64,000 bases of DNA from a virus. The position numbers and the translations under genes are program-made. Where the stretch lies: positions 630 to 64,629 of the IMG/VR virus record IMGVR_UViG_3300048858_000017. The stretch is one strand, 5' to 3'. The notes under the pieces were generated by a model. The model saw only the letters and a list, made by a program, of their open reading frames with translations. It searched no databases and was not told the DNA's origin. The stretch's first letter is position 1, and each line of letters starts with the position of its first letter. This document shows positions 2,202-56,582 of the stretch, in pieces.

Positions 2202-2888
2202 TCATCCCCTCCCGTCGCGGGCGAGCGCGCGGTCTATGGCGGCACGGAGTTGCGGCGGGTATTTCGACCCACGCTCCGGCTTCTTCCGTTCCGACTTAGT
2301 CGGGTTCGATACAGCGGCCACAGGGGCCTTCTTGCCCTTCTTTGGGGTGTCGGCCCGCTTCCGCTTCGGAGGGGGCGCAAGCACCGCGTCTAGGCCCTCG
2401 GTCTCGATGCGCTTCTCCAACCGGCGCTGACCCGGGGTGACCTCGTCGGGCAGCTGGGGAAGGGCCTCGACCGTGATCTCGGTGCGTTCCGGATAGCCGT
2501 AGCGTTTGGCGCTGTTCGGGTAGCCGCAGACCTGATTGTCGTCGATGTAAGCGATCCCCTTGAGGGCATCCTTGGCCTGTTTGACGATCTGGTCGAGGTC
2601 AGGGTCGGCGACGTGCATGACACGCGCCTCGCGCGCAGCCTTCTGTAGGGCCTTCGGCCAGCTGGGCGGGATTGCGAATATCGCCACGATCCTGACGATT
2701 ACGGGGCCGGTGAACGGCCGGCGCGACCCGAAGGCCTGCCGGGCCGCCCACGCGATCCGTTGCTTGCCCGCCTCGGCCTCCTTGTCGGTGAACCGCATGG
2801 CCTCGCCGGTGGTGGGGTTTATCCCCTGCCCCGGACGCTGCCAGCGCGACGGCTTCCCGTCGACCTTGAAGGTGACCCGGTCGGTCAC
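2202..2888 (-). CDS. rusA: RusA-family Holliday junction resolvase
   Basis: PDLDQIVKQAKDALKGIAYIDDNQV catalytic motif; GTG start overlaps the ACP stop (GTGA). Confidence 0.8.
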   Translation of the reverse strand: MTDRVTFKVDGKPSRWQRPGQGINPTTGEAMRFTDKEAEAGKQRIAWAARQAFGSRRPFTGPVIVRIVAIFAIPPSWPKALQKAAREARVMHVADPDLDQIVKQAKDALKGIAYIDDNQVCGYPNSAKRYGYPERTEITVEALPQLPDEVTPGQRRLEKRIETEGLDAVLAPPPKRKRADTPKKGKKAPVAAVSNPTKSERKKPERGSKYPPQLRAAIDRALARDGRG

Positions 2889-3130
2889 GCCAGCTTGCGC
2901 TCGACGAGGGCCTGCCAGTCGCCGACGGTTAAGCACTCTTCCGCCTCGACATCGCTGACGCTGATGTTGAAGGCCCCCTCTACCGCCATGGTGAGTTCGA
3001 CGCAGTCGAGGCTGTCGGCACCGAGATCGTCGGCAAGGTTCGCCGTGTCGGTGGCGTCAGCTGCGTCGACACTAAGATGGTCGACGATGATCTCGCGGAC
3101 CTGTTCGGCGCGCGCGGTGGTGTCAGGCAT
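2885..3130 (-). CDS. acpP: Acyl carrier protein (phage-encoded)
   Basis: 81 aa, acidic; VREIIVDHL...DDLGADSLDCVELTMAVEGAFNISVSD matches ACP with an intact phosphopantetheine Ser (DSL); SD GGAGGA. Confidence 0.9.
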   Translation of the reverse strand: MPDTTARAEQVREIIVDHLSVDAADATDTANLADDLGADSLDCVELTMAVEGAFNISVSDVEAEECLTVGDWQALVERKLA

Positions 3131-5059: not shown

Positions 5060-5140
5060 AGGCGGCGGGTTTAAGCGCAAAGCAAATGCTAATCAACGGG
5101 CAAAACCGCCTTGCCACCGCGGCAGGGCGCGACTAAGCCG
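5060..5140. promoter_or_regulatory. Divergent early promoter region with operator-like palindrome
   Basis: Minus strand TTGATT-N16-TTAAAC ends 9 nt before the HTH ATG; plus strand TTGCCA-N16-CTAAGC overlaps TTGCCACCGCGGCAG (5111-5125). Confidence 0.5.
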
Positions 5141-16900: not shown

Positions 16901-17637
16901 ACGACCTGTTCAAGACCGAGGCCGAGATGGTCGCCAGCTGGCTCAAGCACGAGTTCGGCCGCGCCAACCATCGCGGCGACTGGTTGGTCTATCCCGAGAC
17001 CGCCGGGTGGGACCTGCTCCTCGTCCACGCCGACGGCTATCAGATCGGCGTCGAGGCGAAGCTGTCGCTGAACGCGAAGGTTCTAGACCAGGCCCTCGTC
17101 GGTCAGCACACAAGTTATGGCTGCGACGGCCCGGACTATCGGGCCGTCTTGGTGCCCGAGGGCAGGGTCCAGCTGCATCTCGGCAACATCGCCGCCGCGA
17201 TCGGCATCCGTGTCCTAACGGTCCACAAGCCCGAGCGCGGCATCTGGCGCTCGGTCGACCTGCCCGACGAGAACAGCGCCTATCGGCAGTGGCCGAACTG
17301 GATGCCGTCGGAGCGATGCCCGCTCCCTGAATATGTGCCTGACGTAGCGGCCGGGATGGCTGCCCCGGTGCAGCTGACGCCATGGAAGGTGAAGGCTATC
17401 CGGCTGATGATCGTGCTGGAGCGGCGCGGCTTCGTCACCCGAGCCGACATGAAGGCCCTCGGTATCAGCCCGACCCGCTGGTGCGACCACTTCCACGGGT
17501 TCCTCGACCCCGGCCCTGCCCGGAACTACGTGCGCGGCAAGCGGACCCCCGACCTCAAGGCCCAGCACCCGACGAACTGGGCGCAGATCGAGGCCGACTT
17601 CGACAAATGGACGGCCGAGGCCAAGCTGTCGGTTTAG
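16897..17637 (+). CDS. Putative PD-(D/E)XK (MmcB-like) nuclease-fold protein
   Basis: PETAGWDLLLVH...GVEAK spacing. Confidence 0.5.
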   Translation: MNDLFKTEAEMVASWLKHEFGRANHRGDWLVYPETAGWDLLLVHADGYQIGVEAKLSLNAKVLDQALVGQHTSYGCDGPDYRAVLVPEGRVQLHLGNIAAAIGIRVLTVHKPERGIWRSVDLPDENSAYRQWPNWMPSERCPLPEYVPDVAAGMAAPVQLTPWKVKAIRLMIVLERRGFVTRADMKALGISPTRWCDHFHGFLDPGPARNYVRGKRTPDLKAQHPTNWAQIEADFDKWTAEAKLSV

Positions 17638-18050
17638 CGGAAAGCGGTCACGCGCGCCGTGATCGAGTAGCTGACGCCCACCCCCAGCTGGGGCAGGAGC
17701 AGCTTCGCGACTGCCGACCCCCCGGCGCTTGAGCAGCGGATATCCCCAAGCATGAAGCCAGCCGGGGGCGGAGAGGTCTCGGTGGGCGTCATAATCAGGC
17801 GGTCTCCGGGGAGGCAAGCCACGCTGACGATGAAGTCGCGAACCCCGGAAAGCTGAACCGACAGGAGGCCGGACTGCGCCAAGGTGACGTCGGCGAGCAG
17901 GACCGGCTGATGCGACTGCAACGTGGCGATCGTGACGTCCGCCTCCGCGCGCGTCATCAGGGTCGAGGCGTCGACCGGTGGGTAGCTGATCGTCTGGGCC
18001 GCCGCCGGGGCGGCGCAAAGCAATGCGGCGAGCAGGATCAAGCGGCGCAT
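17634..18050 (-). CDS. Secreted hypothetical protein
   Basis: Sec signal MRRLILLAALLCAAPAAA-Q. Confidence 0.75.
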   Translation of the reverse strand: MRRLILLAALLCAAPAAAQTISYPPVDASTLMTRAEADVTIATLQSHQPVLLADVTLAQSGLLSVQLSGVRDFIVSVACLPGDRLIMTPTETSPPPAGFMLGDIRCSSAGGSAVAKLLLPQLGVGVSYSITARVTAFR

Positions 18051-18051
18051 G

Positions 18052-19347
18052 TCAGTACATCTCCACGTAAGCGATCGTCATGCCGGACGCCCCGCGCGCG
18101 TAGATCGCTGCCGATGTAGGCAAGGTGACGATCGCGCCGTTGCCAAGCGGGGCCGGGTTCGCCGGGAAGGTGGCCGACGAGGCGATAAAGTAGGTCGTAT
18201 TGCTCGTCGGGTAGAGTGTGATCGAGCGACGACCGGCGCGGGCGGGCGCGACTAGCGTCGCGGTCGTGCCGACAGCAACCGAATTGGTGGCGAAGTTGCT
18301 GACACCGACGTCCGTCACCGCCTGGACAGCGGGGAGGTTCGATACACTGACGGTCGGCGTTCCGGCGATAGCGACGGACCCTGACACCGGCTGGGTCGCT
18401 GGGAAGTTGCCAACGCTGACCGTTGGCGTGCCGGTGATGCCGACCGACCACTGACCAGATTGAGTAGCCGCCACCGACCCCGTGATGGCCTGCGTTGCCG
18501 GGAGGTTCGACACCGCGACCGACCCGATCGCATTTGTGCCCGCCGGAATAGCGGGCAGGCTCGACACGCCGACCGTTCCGCTGATTGCCTGAGAAGCCGG
18601 GAAGTTGCTGACTGTGACAGCCCCTGAGACCGGCTGGGTGGCCGGCCAGAACGTGCCGCTGACCGGGACCGTCCCGGTCACGCTGACGGAGCCGCTAACC
18701 GGCTGGGTGGCCGGCAGATTGGAGACTGTGACCGACGGTGATCCCGTGATCGAGACGGCCCCGCCCTGCTGCAGCGGCGAGCCGAGGGCCGTCAGGATCG
18801 ACTGCTGCAGGGCGCTCGTCGCGGCCCCGTCCGGCAGGATCGTCTTGCCGATGGTCAGGTTGCCGGCCGGGAGGGAGGTTCCGAACTGGATCACGGAGGA
18901 GTTGGCGGTCGCCGCGGCCGAGATGCGCGCCGTCCCGCTCCCCGCCGCCGAGACACGGAACCGGATGGCGCGGCTGCCGACGGTGTTGAGCGTGAAGGAC
19001 GCATCCTGCGTGACCGACGGGGCGAAGGCACCGGCGCTTCCCGTGACCAGGAGGTTCCGCGCTGTCCAGATCGCCCCCACGGTGCGCTCGACGACGATCG
19101 TCGCCCCTGAGCCGGTGAGGCCGGTGATATCCGCGGCCACGACGCCTTGCCCGTTTCCGATCGGCATTTCGATGACCGACCCGTCCGGGCACTGCGCGGT
19201 GGCGGTGCCCGTCGGGCAGGCCCGCGACAGATCGAGCGATGTCGCGGCCACCGCGTCGGACTGGCCGGACCCTCCCTGAACCTGCGCCGTAACAGGGCTG
19301 GCGAAGAGGAGCGCGGCGATGGCGAGTAAGTTGCGCATGTGGGTCAT
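18052..19347 (-). CDS. Secreted beta-repeat (fibre-like) protein
   Basis: Signal MRNLLAIAALLFASPVTA-Q; repeated VSNLPATQPVSGSV units; C-terminal beta domain. Confidence 0.8.
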   Translation of the reverse strand: MTHMRNLLAIAALLFASPVTAQVQGGSGQSDAVAATSLDLSRACPTGTATAQCPDGSVIEMPIGNGQGVVAADITGLTGSGATIVVERTVGAIWTARNLLVTGSAGAFAPSVTQDASFTLNTVGSRAIRFRVSAAGSGTARISAAATANSSVIQFGTSLPAGNLTIGKTILPDGAATSALQQSILTALGSPLQQGGAVSITGSPSVTVSNLPATQPVSGSVSVTGTVPVSGTFWPATQPVSGAVTVSNFPASQAISGTVGVSSLPAIPAGTNAIGSVAVSNLPATQAITGSVAATQSGQWSVGITGTPTVSVGNFPATQPVSGSVAIAGTPTVSVSNLPAVQAVTDVGVSNFATNSVAVGTTATLVAPARAGRRSITLYPTSNTTYFIASSATFPANPAPLGNGAIVTLPTSAAIYARGASGMTIAYVEMY

Positions 19348-19790
19348 CCCTGCTTGCAGATGAAGCGGTGCCCGGCGGTCGCGGAAGTGACGAACACCGC
19401 CCCCGTCAGCGACACCCCAGACGGGTTCGTGAACAGCTGCCCCGGCCCAAGTTCCCACGACCCGCCCGCGACAGAGGCCGGGCTGCCGACACTGATGAAC
19501 AGGGTCTCGGTCGAGGAGATCGGGTTCTGGCAGGACAGCAGCACGCGAGACGGGTTGGCTGCAAAGACCTGCTGCGAGGCGGACCCGACGGCAACGGTTC
19601 CCGACCCGTCGACGGGATTCGTCACGATCGGGGCTGAGGAAGCCGGCGTGGGGCCGGGAATGGCGACTGGTAACGGATGGGTTTGATCGACCGGCACCGG
19701 CTTGCGGTCGGACCCGACGTACCGAATCACCTCCTGCGCGGAGGCCGGCGTTGCGAGGGTCAAGAGCGCGAGGGCCACCAGATAACGCAT
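19344..19790 (-). CDS. Secreted beta-sandwich protein
   Basis: Signal MRYLVALALLTLATPASA-Q; ATGA-coupled to the next gene. Confidence 0.75.
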   Translation of the reverse strand: MRYLVALALLTLATPASAQEVIRYVGSDRKPVPVDQTHPLPVAIPGPTPASSAPIVTNPVDGSGTVAVGSASQQVFAANPSRVLLSCQNPISSTETLFISVGSPASVAGGSWELGPGQLFTNPSGVSLTGAVFVTSATAGHRFICKQG

Positions 19791-19831
19791 CGGCGTTGCT
19801 CCAATATGCTGGGGGGCACACGGCCCGCCTT

Positions 19832-19861
19832 GATATGCGACGGGTAACTGACGCCTGTCCA
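19832..19861 (-). promoter_or_regulatory. Putative sigma70 promoter of the secreted cassette
   Basis: TGGACA-N17-GCATATC, similar to the alphaproteobacterial housekeeping consensus. Confidence 0.45.
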
Positions 19862-19918
19862 CCCCCTGCCGCCTGTTGGAGGCCTTCGCGGCTTTCCGAC
19901 TTATGCAAAAAGTGCTGG

Positions 19919-25430: not shown

Positions 25431-25502
25431 CGGCGTTTCTCGTGGTGGGGAAACACCGGGCGAAAGCCTAGACTGGCCTCGGGGGAACCCGGGGCCTTTT
25501 TT
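25431..25502 (+). ncRNA. Candidate small structured RNA
   Basis: CTGACA-N16-CTATAT promoter (25400-25427), then hairpins and an intrinsic terminator, with no ORF or SD inside. Confidence 0.5.
25475..25502 (+). terminator. Rho-independent terminator
   Basis: GGCCTCGGG/CCCGGGGCC stem followed by TTTTTT. Confidence 0.8.
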
Positions 25503-25608
25503 GCATAAGTCGATAAGCCGGGAAGGGCCGCTACAGCGCCGTTTTGGTGATTACGCGCCGACGCACCGCGATACCGGCAAAGGCCCGCTGTGGCCCGTTT
25601 GCGGGCGG

Positions 25609-29168: not shown

Positions 29169-31553
29169 TCAGCCGGCCAGCTGTGCCTCGATACGGGCTA
29201 AGCGGCGGCGGTAATAGGCCGCCTCGACCGCAAAAGCCTCGGTGTAGCGGATGCCCCACTGCTCGCCCGCCGCACGCACGAGCCGCCGGCCTGCCTTCCG
29301 TATAAGGACGCGCTCGGCAGGGGTTTTGACGATCGCGTTCCCATCGTCACCGCCGATAAGGTTGCCGGCTTCGTCGCGGGCGAACACCGCCTCCCGATCC
29401 TCGTACTCGTCCTCCCACTCGTCCCACTGATCGTCCCAGCGGTCATGGCAGAGCAGCCCGTAACGGGTGCCGTCAATGCCGTGCGCCTGCAGCGCGTCAC
29501 GCACCTGCTGCGCGACGACGCCGGTATGAATGCGGGCATCGTCACCCTTTTCGTCGACGGCGTCCGACATACGAAACTGGCTCCACTGCACATCTGCCCA
29601 GGCATCGAGCAGCGCGTCGTCGATCGGCCGAATATCGGACTTCTGTCGTTCGTCCGAGGTGCTGATGGTCGCATTGGCGGCATAGACCTGCGTGAAGCGG
29701 CGGGCGGCGGAACCCAGCCCGAACGTGTTATCCCCGCCGGGGAGGATCGCCGCCGACTGGAGCAACAGCGCCGTCAGCCAAGCCGCGCCGGCCGGGCTCC
29801 ACAGGTCGATCTGTGCCTCGCCGAAAGCCGCCGCAGTTGCACCGCTTCGTGCGGCGTACCGCGCCACATGATGCGGCGTCACCCCGTCTGCTTCGAACCC
29901 AACGTCGATCTGAAGGGCTGAACCTCGGCTGCTGCCGATGCTGCCGGTGTTGTGCAAGGTCGCCTGCGCACCTAGCCCGCTGACACCGCCCTGTGCGAGC
30001 AAGGTGGCACCCGTGAATCCGTTGCGACCGTAGAGACGCATCCCGGCACCAGACAGGTGGCCGCAATTTCCGGTGATCCCACCGTCGCCGCTCAACAGGC
30101 CGTTGATGATCCAGTTTTGCGTATCCACGGCAGTCAGGACGGCGAGCGGGCCGCTGCCGCCTTCGGTGTAGGGGTTGTTGATGACGTTCCGGGCCGTATT
30201 CGAGCCCAAGGCATAGCTGGCTCCGTGCAGATACGGCTTGCCGTTGACCCAATTGTCGGCCTGGGTCGTTGCGTCTCCCTTGAACCATGCGGTGCCGGTC
30301 CCCGGGGCCTGCGTCGATGCCGTCGTGGGATCGAGGCACCACCACCGGAAGCCGCCGTAGTACACCATGCCATCACGGCCGGCGTTGGCGGTCTGCGGGC
30401 TGTCGTGAACGTTGCCGAGGAAGCTGAACTCCCCGATGCAGGGGCCGCCGTGCATTGCGCCGTTCACGCCGGTTGAGCGCGAGGCGTTCATGTCGGCACC
30501 TTCCCACCATAGCGGCGATCCGGTGAGCTGCTCGGCGCGGATGACGTGCACAGTCGTACCGTTGGCGTTGCCGGCCGTAAATGGATCGGTGCTGACGGCG
30601 GTTGCTCGGCCGTAGACCGCATGGCCCATCACGCCGCGAATCCGCAGGTACTGCATGATGCCTCGGCATTTGTGCCAGATCGCGTGCTCGGTGAGGTTGG
30701 AGCCGTCGTAGGGAAGGCGGTCGCCCTGCCCCATGACAATCTCCATATTGGCGATCATGAAGCCATCCGCCGATGCCGTGCTGGCGCGGGCGAGGATGAA
30801 GGGGTTTTTGCCGGTATCGTCGGCATTGGTGTTGAAGCGGTGAAAGAACCAGCCGACGCAGCCACGATCGAAGCGGACGCGGGTGGTGTAGTTGCCGGCC
30901 TCTGCCCCGGCGCGGCCCATGATAACGACCGTCCGCAGCACGTTGATGCACTTGCTGGACCGATACTTGCCGGGGAGCCGGATGAAATTGAAGTAGTCCA
31001 CCGCCTTCTTGAGATAAACCCAATCGTCGGTACCCTTGTTCGCGCTGTTGAAGGCGTATTGCCCATCGTCGGCATAAGCACCCAGCATTTCTGGGGTGCC
31101 CTCGTCAGGAGGGATGAACCAGGACTTGGCCCCGCCGTTCGTGGTGATCCACCAGTAACCCTTGCCGGCCGGGTCGAGCGCGGGCATCGATGCGTCCCAG
31201 AGGAACATCTGATGCGCGCCCTGCCCGTTCTTGCGGAAGCCCGAGAACTGGATCACACCGACGCCGTCCGGGATCGCGGTCTGATCACCGACCAGCACGC
31301 GCGTCCCGACGGACATAACATTTCCGCCCGGATCACCCTTATTGTTGAAGGTCAGGCCGGCAGACGTGAAGGCACCGATCCAAGCCGGGGGCGGGGCATA
31401 GATGATGTCTTGAATGACGCGCTTGATAGTCCTGACCGGGCCGCCGATACGGGTCTGAACCTGACCGGGCTGCTCCGGGCCGTTGACAATCGCGGCTAGA
31501 TCGTCGGCGTCGCGGCTCGCGTTCTCCAGCTGCTGTTCCGTGATCACCGCCAT
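29169..31553 (-). CDS. Tailspike/fibre with C-terminal intramolecular chaperone (peptidase S74)
   Basis: beta-helix-like core; TISTSDERQK...HTGVVAQ...GIRY. Confidence 0.88.
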   Translation of the reverse strand: MAVITEQQLENASRDADDLAAIVNGPEQPGQVQTRIGGPVRTIKRVIQDIIYAPPPAWIGAFTSAGLTFNNKGDPGGNVMSVGTRVLVGDQTAIPDGVGVIQFSGFRKNGQGAHQMFLWDASMPALDPAGKGYWWITTNGGAKSWFIPPDEGTPEMLGAYADDGQYAFNSANKGTDDWVYLKKAVDYFNFIRLPGKYRSSKCINVLRTVVIMGRAGAEAGNYTTRVRFDRGCVGWFFHRFNTNADDTGKNPFILARASTASADGFMIANMEIVMGQGDRLPYDGSNLTEHAIWHKCRGIMQYLRIRGVMGHAVYGRATAVSTDPFTAGNANGTTVHVIRAEQLTGSPLWWEGADMNASRSTGVNGAMHGGPCIGEFSFLGNVHDSPQTANAGRDGMVYYGGFRWWCLDPTTASTQAPGTGTAWFKGDATTQADNWVNGKPYLHGASYALGSNTARNVINNPYTEGGSGPLAVLTAVDTQNWIINGLLSGDGGITGNCGHLSGAGMRLYGRNGFTGATLLAQGGVSGLGAQATLHNTGSIGSSRGSALQIDVGFEADGVTPHHVARYAARSGATAAAFGEAQIDLWSPAGAAWLTALLLQSAAILPGGDNTFGLGSAARRFTQVYAANATISTSDERQKSDIRPIDDALLDAWADVQWSQFRMSDAVDEKGDDARIHTGVVAQQVRDALQAHGIDGTRYGLLCHDRWDDQWDEWEDEYEDREAVFARDEAGNLIGGDDGNAIVKTPAERVLIRKAGRRLVRAAGEQWGIRYTEAFAVEAAYYRRRLARIEAQLAG

Positions 31554-45662: not shown

Positions 45663-46046
45663 TTACGCCGCCGCGTTGCCCGTCTTGGTCATGTCGATCT
45701 CGACCAGCTCATTCGCGGCTGCCGCGCTGATGGCCTGACCGGCGACGACATGGGTGGCCGCGGCGACGCGCGCGGCACCGTTCGCATCCGACGAGATGAA
45801 CTGACCGGGCGTGATGGCGGCCGAGGCAACCACCTTCAGCTGGTTGCCGGTGTCGACCGACGTGTGCAGGCCGACGGCCTTGCCCTCGCTGATCACGCCG
45901 GCGACCTGCTCGCCGAGACCGGCGAGCGCGAACTTGCTCTCGCCGCCATCGTTGACCCGCTTGGCAAAGCGGAACTCCTTGCCGGTCAGATCGACCGCAG
46001 AGGCCTTGGCGTCGGTCTGCGAACCGACCTGCCGAGTAACTGCCAT
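45663..46046 (-). CDS. Head decoration/cement protein
   Basis: Small Ala/Gly-rich protein before the capsid gene; VVASAAITPGQFISSDANG. Confidence 0.75.
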   Translation of the reverse strand: MAVTRQVGSQTDAKASAVDLTGKEFRFAKRVNDGGESKFALAGLGEQVAGVISEGKAVGLHTSVDTGNQLKVVASAAITPGQFISSDANGAARVAAATHVVAGQAISAAAANELVEIDMTKTGNAAA

Positions 46047-54720: not shown

Positions 54721-55386
54721 CTACTCCCCGCCCCGGGAGGTGACAATCTTGAACCGTTCCGCGATCCGGTCGGCCCCGGCCGTCAGCTGTGGCAGATCGG
54801 GACGGTCGGCCGGTGGGCGATCCCACGATGGCTCCCATGTGGCGCAGGCCTCGTCCTGCGGCACCCGGACCAGCCGGCCCGCGTCCAGGTCGGCGAGCGC
54901 GGCGACGAGGAGGCGGACCCCCATCGGGAACAGGCTGTCGCGCCAGAGGTCCGAGGCCGTGGTGCCCGGCCGAACATGCAACCAGTCGGCCGCCGCGATC
55001 GGGCCGCCGTCAACGCGCGGGCCGAGCCAGTAGATCGAGCCGCCGGCGATCGGGTCGCCCATGTGCACGGTCCACTTCACCGCGTCCCGGCCCCTGTGAC
55101 GGGGCAGCAGGGACGGGTGGTAGCCGATGCCCCCTAGCAGGGTGCGCGACAGGGCGCGGTCGCTGACGATGACGTGGGCGTGGGCGCAGACGATCAGGTC
55201 CAGCCCCTCGGGCAGATCATCGGCTGTCAGGCGGGCGGCGCTGGTCGGGATATCGAGGCGGCGGGCCTCCCAGTCGAGGCGGTCGCCGAGCGGGGCGAAC
55301 ACCGCGACCACATCGTGCCCGGCCTCCACGATCGCGCGCAGCGCCGCGGCCCCGAAACTCCGCTGCCCCACCAGTGCAATCCTCAT
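54721..55386 (-). CDS. 10-formyl-THF-dependent formyltransferase-fold protein (ALDH1L1 N-domain-like)
   Basis: RIALVGQ...GHDVVAVF; YHPSLLPRHRG; VDGGPI; LFPMG; ATGA-coupled to the GNAT gene. Confidence 0.9.
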   Translation of the reverse strand: MRIALVGQRSFGAAALRAIVEAGHDVVAVFAPLGDRLDWEARRLDIPTSAARLTADDLPEGLDLIVCAHAHVIVSDRALSRTLLGGIGYHPSLLPRHRGRDAVKWTVHMGDPIAGGSIYWLGPRVDGGPIAAADWLHVRPGTTASDLWRDSLFPMGVRLLVAALADLDAGRLVRVPQDEACATWEPSWDRPPADRPDLPQLTAGADRIAERFKIVTSRGGE

Positions 55387-56582
55387 GCCGGTGCCTTCTC
55401 CGCTGCCTTGCGGGCGGCCCACGCCTCCCCGCGATATTTAAACCCTTGGACGGCCCTGAAATGCCCCCCGTACCCTGCAACCCCCGTCTCGAAATTGCCC
55501 TCGATCAAGCGGGCGCTGTCCGTGGTGCGGGCCGACTTTTTGAGCGACTTCACCGAGGTGGCGCGCCGGTTGCCATGCAGGACCGCGCTGACCTGCTCCC
55601 ACCGGGGGTCACGGCGCAACGCGGCGCAGAGGCCCGGGTGGGAGGTGTGGAAGAACCCGCACTTGACCCGGTCGCCGAACTGCCCCTGACCGCTGACCTC
55701 GCGCTCCATGACCCAGTTCAGGAACTTCATGCCGACGCCCGCCCCCTGCCACTCCGGCATGATGACCATGCGGCAGCCGCGGACGCCGCCGGTGTTGAGG
55801 CGGGGCGCGATCCCGAGGTGGGCCACCGGCTCCCCGTCGACGAACGCGACGAAGTAGCGGCAGGCCACCATGCGGGGCAGCTTCAGATAGTGATGCGGCT
55901 CAAAGAGGTCCCAGTAGGAGCCGTCGACCTGCCGAATTTCAAGTTCGATAGGAGGGCGTCGTCGAAGACGCCTCCCTGCGGCATCCCGCTCGAACACGCC
56001 CGTAGCCGTGTCAAAAATCCAGTCCGGTTCCAGCCAGTCGAGGACGTCGTAATGGCAGGACAGCAGCACGGCCTTCCCGCTGGTGCGCCGCCACGCCTTC
56101 TGGAACGCGAGCGCCCCGATCTTGGCGATCTGGCGGTCGACGACGGACGTGAACTCGTCGATGACCACTGCGGCCGGCTCCTCAGCGACGATGCGGGCCA
56201 GTTCGGCGCGGAACTTCTCGCCGTTCGACAGGACCCCATAGGGGCGCAGCCACGACGGGACCGACCCCAGCCCGACCGCTGACAGCGCGGCGGTGACGGC
56301 GTTGAAGTCGCCCCCGGGCGCGATGGCGTCCACGATCGGGGCGTCGTCGGGCCACTCCCCACCCGTCCACAGCGCGCCTTCCCCGAGGATCGACTTGCCG
56401 AGCGATGTCTTGCCAGAGCCGGAGGGTCCGACGACGACCCCGACCTTCCAGCCGTCGTCATCGATGTCAAGGTCGGCGTCCAGATCGAACGCCTGCCCCG
56501 ACTCGGCGTTGAACAGGCTCTGCACCCGGGCAGCGCGATAGCTGGCGTAGTGCGGGCAACGGTTACGGATTTCGATATGCAT
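55383..56582 (-). CDS. ABC-type ATPase fused to Mom-like GNAT acyltransferase
   Basis: Walker A GPSGSGKT, signature LSNGE, Walker B VVIDEF; FEPHHYL and RMVIMPEWQGAGVG (GNAT motif A). Confidence 0.88.
   Translation of the reverse strand: MHIEIRNRCPHYASYRAARVQSLFNAESGQAFDLDADLDIDDDGWKVGVVVGPSGSGKTSLGKSILGEGALWTGGEWPDDAPIVDAIAPGGDFNAVTAALSAVGLGSVPSWLRPYGVLSNGEKFRAELARIVAEEPAAVVIDEFTSVVDRQIAKIGALAFQKAWRRTSGKAVLLSCHYDVLDWLEPDWIFDTATGVFERDAAGRRLRRRPPIELEIRQVDGSYWDLFEPHHYLKLPRMVACRYFVAFVDGEPVAHLGIAPRLNTGGVRGCRMVIMPEWQGAGVGMKFLNWVMEREVSGQGQFGDRVKCGFFHTSHPGLCAALRRDPRWEQVSAVLHGNRRATSVKSLKKSARTTDSARLIEGNFETGVAGYGGHFRAVQGFKYRGEAWAARKAAEKAPA

Follow-up and report, generated by a model that had tools for sequence, protein, structure and literature searches.

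Tailed phages are assumed to finish their particles in the cytoplasm, and structural annotation as a rule passes over proteins that carry signal peptides. What, then, are three adjacent genes that each encode a fibre- or spike-like protein behind an apparent Sec signal doing in the genome of a siphophage? The genes, here called A, B and C, lie within a 64,000-nucleotide stretch of viral DNA (positions 630 to 64,629 of IMG/VR record IMGVR_UViG_3300048858_000017; 'the window' below), which makes up most of a complete 67,605-bp genome with terminal repeats, and the capsid is built from the HK97-type major head protein of tailed phages. An earlier note, made from the letters of the window, had described a moron-like cassette with its own promoter that builds an exported fibre or surface layer, or else a virion appendage assembled in the periplasm. 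What stands of that interpretation is an accessory, mobile, fibre- or spike-like cassette with signals that are probably real, and among the proposed roles the periplasm-assembled virion appendage is best supported; a lysogen moron building a host surface layer is not supported. Our preferred reading, held tentatively and at slightly below an even chance, is that A, B and C form a virion spike which matures in the periplasm and is added to particles at lysis. More tentative still is the wider proposal that, in a widespread tailed-phage family of soil Alphaproteobacteria, part of the particle is made in the host periplasm. This part would be a penton-like spike that is exported by Sec, stabilised by disulfides, self-assembled outside the cytoplasm and joined to capsids only when the cell lyses; it would descend from cytoplasmic head spikes and travel as a plug-in cassette among sipho-, myo- and podophages.

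Signal peptides were called by a heuristic requiring a basic n-region, a hydrophobic h-region and a cleavage site of the A-x-A type, which marked five of the 48 window genes: A, B and C, one lipoprotein and one false positive. The Sec-type signal that the earlier note had seen on each gene was confirmed by this heuristic as 18 residues long, starting with M-R and continuing through a hydrophobic run and A-x-A or V-T-A to Gln19. The Ala-Gln junction, with the full n/h/c anatomy, is invariant in all three genes of six phages and in more than 70 homologues of A. The signal is accompanied by cysteines: among 120 homologues of A a cysteine pair is present in 57 of the 72 that bear a signal and in one of the 48 that do not, this lone case looking truncated. 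The two cysteines nearly always co-occur and, by standard jelly-roll topology, would sit on neighbouring strands. The C family has a cysteine pair of its own (15 of 37 signal-bearing vs 1 of 110 signal-less members), so that the same pattern appears in two unrelated domains, and because cysteine pairs are tied to the signal in two domain families, folding in the periplasm best explains them. Predicted cleavage before Gln19 also puts the conserved motif of C at position +5, whilst signal-less homologues carry it at residue 6; cleavage would, in effect, restore the ancestral N-terminus of C. Export of the three proteins is therefore probably real, and from these sequence patterns we strongly infer export, cleavage and disulfide formation. 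Signals without cysteines occur at several other places on the weakly resolved tree of A, hinting that signals were gained repeatedly in this family.

The A domain connects the cassette to a phage particle. A is 35% identical to gp13 of Sinorhizobium phage phiM5 (MF074189.1; E 5e-9, profile 3e-21), which is a bare A domain with neither signal nor cysteine pair, encoded directly behind the major capsid gene, and the annotation lists both gp13 and its SGNH neighbour gp14 as found in the particle proteome. The C-terminal domain of B had been noted to resemble A, and the two are indeed remote homologues: the iterated profile of the B domain matches A at 2e-12 and phiM5 gp13 at 3e-13, although direct HHalign of A against the single B sequence is weak (E 0.16). 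This B domain is modelled as a small single jelly roll of eight strands (predicted local distance difference test (pLDDT) score >90), its profile hits GP14, the penton base of NO16, in the distal domain (9t9r_A; E 2.6e-5), and its fold resembles that of the PM2 spike protein P1 (2vve; VIA Z 8.8, root mean square deviation (rmsd) 2.4, 78 residues aligned). Signal-less homologues fuse the A domain or the repeats of B to the PRD1 P5 spike domain (PF08948). By these homologies A is a putative spike base or penton-like subunit, and the domains of the cassette trace to spike and penton proteins of virions rather than to components of tails or to bacterial pili. No match to A, B or C was found in Pfam, the PDB sequence search with the A profile found nothing, and the PHROGs search returned only phrog_22789, a family of unknown function, for A. 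Two database labels were set aside: an Atlas link of A to PF08948, which stems from the fused N-terminal domain and not from the A domain itself, and the UniRef name 'C-type lysozyme inhibitor' on a Sphingomonas homologue of A, which has no support from Pfam or fold.

The model of B contains two confident beta domains separated by a repeat region that is unfolded in the monomer. About six repeats had been counted previously; six are clear (residues 207, 230, 245, 278, 311 and 334) and one or two are degenerate, all interspersed and not in tandem, and homologues carry from 0–1 to more than seven. The repeat shaft is probably oligomeric. The N-terminal domain of B is closest in fold to two Bacillus subtilis prophage proteins, XepA of PBSX (6i56; VIA Z 12.2, rmsd 2.4, 106 residues aligned) and YomS of SPbeta (6i5o; VIA Z 11.4, rmsd 3.1, 107 aligned), the next-best matches reaching only about Z 7.6; Foldseek gave E 2e-5 for this domain. 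Rows for an Ena pilin and BclA (Z 6–7.6) were set aside as reflecting the common jelly roll, and rows for PsbY and toxin A in the PDB sequence search as compositional. Like B, XepA and YomS are phage-encoded late proteins in which a stalk joins two jelly rolls; both are pentamers, the XepA/YomS type being a dumbbell with cytotoxicity towards Bacillus, and XepA is exported (PMC6834076). They differ from B in sharing only about 12% identity and in having a stalk of 30 residues instead of about 200 with repeats, and the cassette differs from XepA in its Gram-negative host, its two partner genes and its position outside the lysis cassette of the window, although homologues in three contigs (L003, L014 and L015) do lie at lysis clusters.

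The model of C (pLDDT 91) shows a short motif followed by a helix and a beta-sandwich. The fold search gave only matches of Z 5–6, to lectin-like and tailspike C-terminal domains, which serve as a lead and not as an assignment, and the PDB sequence search with the C profile found nothing. The same domain terminates collagen and coiled-coil fibres as well as a Xanthomonas phage protein annotated as a putative tail fibre, and C is a putative fibre tip.

The cassette recurs in other phages. Signal-bearing genes in the order A-B-C were found in five further contigs, always on the late strand, with capsid, terminase or lysis genes as neighbours. In L001 they stand between terminase and gpW/portal and in L002 within a split terminase; in the myophage contig L003 they follow a holin-like gene, in L004 they open an operon that includes a fourth signal-bearing A-like gene, and in L005 they follow the capsid genes. 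Reduced cassettes, in which A and a C-like gene both bear signals, lie between the coat and head-completion genes of P22-like phages (L013, L041), before the large terminase of the Sphingomonas liriopis RP10 prophage (L039) and downstream of the lysis genes in L014 and L015, and A occurs alone in L040. The copies in L001, L002 and L039 fall in the stretch from terminase to portal. At the post-coat site of other P22-like phages B and C are found without signals (L006, L038), and the site behind the coat gene can hold signal-bearing (L005, L013, L041) or signal-less versions. Signal-less A flanks terminase genes in many contigs. In L002 and L014 a signal-bearing A stands beside signal-less GDSL/SGNH genes, the pairing seen in phiM5; an exported A could meet such partners only after the inner membrane opens, which fits a meeting after lysis. 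Two bacterial-genome scans with the A and B alignments yielded no locus and no close relative.

Several of these neighbourhoods have features of their own. In L002 (3760–9681) one large terminase is divided into an N-half and a C-half by the cassette together with a GDSL and an HNH gene, and no Rfam intron match was found; this terminase is either naturally split or interrupted by an unrecognised intron. In L017–L037 (e.g. L026:3454–6500 and L036:7881–10900) a signal-less A comes immediately after the large terminase and precedes a gene of about 850 codons with an apparent signal peptide and a tailspike or pectin-lyase-type look. Rhizobium phage IC12 (L047:5368–7076) carries a signal-less A-domain fibre gene and a partner as an oppositely oriented pair among small genes, an orphan placement shared with the window cassette. 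Between uvrA and ssb of a 4.5-Mb bacterial chromosome (L044:10001–13818) lies a gene for a signal-bearing 703-residue protein with many B-type repeats and an A-like end, followed by an esterase-like gene (568 residues), with no prophage genes nearby; the 703-residue protein is possibly a domesticated copy.

In the window the three genes are coupled, as the earlier note had it, with gaps of 0–5 nt, and an alternative ATG start of B at 19347 overlaps the stop of A (Table 1). They run opposite to the surrounding early genes, which occupy the plus strand from 5.2 to 25.4 kb, and the stop of C overlaps that of a convergent early gene, tail to tail. It had been overlooked, however, that they share their strand with the whole late operon (57 to 25.6 kb), which encodes terminase, portal, capsid, tape measure, tail and endolysin, and the lysis genes on this same strand lie 6 kb away, with the cassette outside the lytic cassette. 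Of the promoter proposed previously the motif exists, but the sigma-70 scan called nothing there and, with two mismatches allowed, the pattern occurs four times against 2.6 expected, i.e. at chance level. No terminator was called for the cassette.

Table 1. Coordinates of the cassette genes, their predicted domains and the upstream motif in the window.
Feature	Position	Strand	Description
Gene A, 148 aa	19344..19790	minus	Predicted signal 1–18, variable linker, single jelly roll 60–148, Cys87/Cys145
Gene B, 428 aa	18052..19338	minus	Predicted signal 1–18, N-terminal jelly roll, repeat shaft, C-terminal A-like jelly roll (dumbbell)
Gene C, 138 aa	17634..18050	minus	Predicted signal 1–18, conserved SYPPVD motif, helix, beta-sandwich with Cys79/Cys106
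B N-terminal domain (residues about 22–149)	18892..19275	minus	XepA C-domain/YomS-like jelly roll
B repeat shaft (residues about 204–343)	18310..18729	minus	Six to seven NFPATQPVSG-type units
B C-terminal domain (349–428)	18055..18294	minus	Shares homology with A and with the GP14 (NO16 penton base) distal domain
Promoter-like motif TGGACA-N17-GCATATC	19832..19861	minus	Function unproven

The capsid protein of the window phage (44586–45599) is 78% identical to its counterparts in Erythrobacter phages R6L and ZS04, and this likeness, together with the presence of the DNA in a soil metagenome, makes a host among the Sphingomonadales likely. That metagenome, which may be the source of the DNA, is the only sequencing run listed as containing it, and no RNA run was listed. 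R6L, the closest isolate, is syntenic on both sides of the insertion site yet cassette-free, which marks the cassette as an accessory insertion. Close to the syntenic site R6L has gp54 (L042:27873–28238), which stands alone on the minus strand; it was considered as a cassette remnant and rejected as a shadow frame over the unannotated start of a cytosine methyltransferase gene. The guanine plus cytosine (GC) content of the cassette, 0.684, equals that of the genome, and at four-fold sites it is 0.85 (core genes 0.90, tail-tip genes 0.82). Neither an integrase nor a resolvase was found in the complete genome (no match to PF00589 or PF00239), which leaves room for a plasmid-like carrier state.

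Several other features of the window were recorded. A 39-nt inverted repeat (82%, with an exact 15-nt core; arms 19873–19911 and 25498–25536) has its arms on either side of the early block that separates the cassette from the lysis genes. R6L conserves the core of the right arm, and no inversion joint was seen in one soil-metagenome run, in which the region was found in one contig. The palindromic motif TGCCACCGCGGCAG precedes early gene blocks at 5112, 19920, 21109 and 21134, a count of four where 0.06 would be expected, and is likely an operator or early promoter element. Besides the cassette the phage has an ordinary cytoplasmic receptor-binding protein, a tail spike (29169–31553) that carries a Peptidase_S74 chaperone domain but lacks a signal peptide, and it encodes its own cement-like gene (45663–46046). 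An acyl carrier protein gene (2885–3130) is shared with R6L, and just upstream of the terminase genes (54721–56582) lie a formyltransferase-like gene and an ABC-ATPase/acetyltransferase fusion (phrog_11143).

We propose that a virion spike module has been diverted into the Sec pathway. A, B and C would be exported late in infection, lose their 18-residue signals, and fold and form disulfides in the periplasm. A and both ends of B would assemble into five-fold jelly-roll rings, the folds being predicted and the oligomers suggested by solved relatives; the repeats of B would form the shaft, and C a helical stalk with a beta-sandwich tip. Once holin and endolysin have breached the inner membrane, the completed spike may dock on the particle, most likely at capsid vertices, and act as an accessory attachment organ for capsule or surface glycans. 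Export would in this way keep a sticky appendage off head assembly and packaging until release.

Several observations weigh against a periplasm-matured virion spike. Signal-bearing members are absent from known isolated phages and virion proteomes (no isolated phage matched A or any signal-bearing homologue of A), and the best fold match, XepA, is exported but reported absent from mature particles (PMC6834076). Near-identical A proteins are shared by siphophages, myophages and P22-like podophages whose capsid proteins differ, a pattern that sits poorly with a capsid-specific dock, and other copies stand at the end of lysis clusters (L003, L014, L015) or alone (L040 and the window). The signal of B replaces an N-terminal segment carried by signal-less, coat-linked forms, a segment that may be their anchor. 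The signal-plus-cysteine A proteins are largely one clade on a poorly resolved tree, so their counts are not independent events, and virion disulfides form without export in phage Milano (PMC10491603), so that disulfides alone are no proof of export. The capsid of phiM5 is, moreover, reportedly smooth.

Some of these points would be expected if the exported proteins acted off the virion during lytic growth, as an XepA-like repurposed particle, periplasmic or released, that aids lysis, prevents superinfection or masks the receptors of the dying cell, sparing progeny from loss on debris. The XepA/YomS match of the B N-domain, well above the other matches, the shared dumbbell plan, the absence of exported XepA from particles, the conservation of A across unrelated capsids and at the ends of lysis clusters, and the 6 kb between the window cassette and lysis genes on its strand all favour such a role. 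It is the main rival, which we nevertheless regard as rather unlikely: the nearest characterised relative of A, phiM5 gp13, is a particle protein, most mapped copies lie among head genes, the proteins have no catalytic or membrane-spanning part besides their signals, and the short XepA linker has no repeat shaft.

Two further explanations are considerably less probable. That the cassette is a moron for a carrier or lysogenic state, placing a fibre or layer on the host surface for adhesion, receptor masking or exclusion, is improbable in our view. It draws on the insertion relative to R6L as a separate unit with a promoter-like motif, on the signal-bearing repeat and A-domain gene found in a bacterial chromosome without nearby prophage genes (L044) and on the possibility that R6L persists in its host (PMC5463345). 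It meets, however, a complete genome without integrase or resolvase, GC that is not foreign, homologous cassettes embedded in late operons, no usher, secretin, autotransporter or lipid anchor for outer-membrane passage, and the lack of any close relative in the two bacterial-genome scans. Marginally less probable again is that the N-termini are not used for export, or are only transient membrane tethers, and that A, B and C are ordinary cytoplasmic head-spike parts. Their domain homology and gene position are those of virion spikes, export is predicted here from sequence and the Milano disulfides need none, but this explanation leaves unaccounted for the complete signal anatomy with its invariant junction in three genes of six phages and over 70 A homologues, cysteine pairs that track the signal in two unrelated domains, and a predicted cleavage that would restore the N-terminus of C.

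Amongst known systems the head spike of RcGTA offers a functional model for the preferred virion spike, being a small jelly-roll base on an HK97-type capsid that carries a fibre, with the base a pentamer attached to capsid pentamers through N-terminal arms. There, Rcc01079 forms the base and Rcc01080 the fibre, which docks via an N-terminal Ile/Leu-Gly repeat, and the spike binds capsule (PMC7296036). It differs from the cassette in having two genes, a cytoplasmic origin and no export signals, and the cassette lacks the Ile/Leu-Gly docking repeat. The RcGTA head-spike genes lie outside the main structural cluster, as the window cassette does. Rcc01079 gave no sequence match and was not among the listed structure matches, a whole-model search that can miss single domains. 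The vertex proteins of double-jelly-roll viruses (NO16 GP14, 9t9r; PM2 P1, 2vve; PRD1 P31/P5, PF08948) share the terminal domain of A and B, which is homologous to the distal domain of GP14 and resembles a domain of PM2 P1. GP14 forms pentamers that clasp trimeric spikes by their N-terminal stalks (PMC13552765), and C might be held likewise. Unlike these proteins the cassette has no shell-inserted PF08948 domain, bears Sec signals throughout and belongs to a tailed phage with an HK97-type capsid. Phage morons and periplasmic exclusion proteins (lambda Lom and Bor, T4 Spackle, P1 Sim) are, like the cassette, accessory, inserted and exported, but they are not derived from virion spikes, and the cassette phage has no lysogeny module and its cassette no GC contrast. 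The cassette is thus not a strict member of the RcGTA spike, double-jelly-roll penton or moron classes. PhiM5 itself pairs the A domain of gp13 with an SGNH protein, as in L002 and L014, but it is a podovirus whose gp13 has neither signal nor cysteine pair and which has no B or C.

Searches of the openly accessible literature turned up no account of head spikes exported by Sec in tailed phages, and the value of the cassette lies in a direct bridge between an exported family and a signal-less particle protein listed by proteomics. This provides a natural control, in that the A domain exists as a signal-less particle protein in phiM5 and as an apparently exported, disulfide-bearing form at the same genomic site elsewhere. 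If the exported parts join the particle, tailed phages would have a post-lysis assembly step and a route by which oxidatively folded proteins could be displayed on phages. If they stay off it, virion spikes would have been converted repeatedly into proteins acting on the cell envelope, which would bear on the unexplained XepA and YomS.

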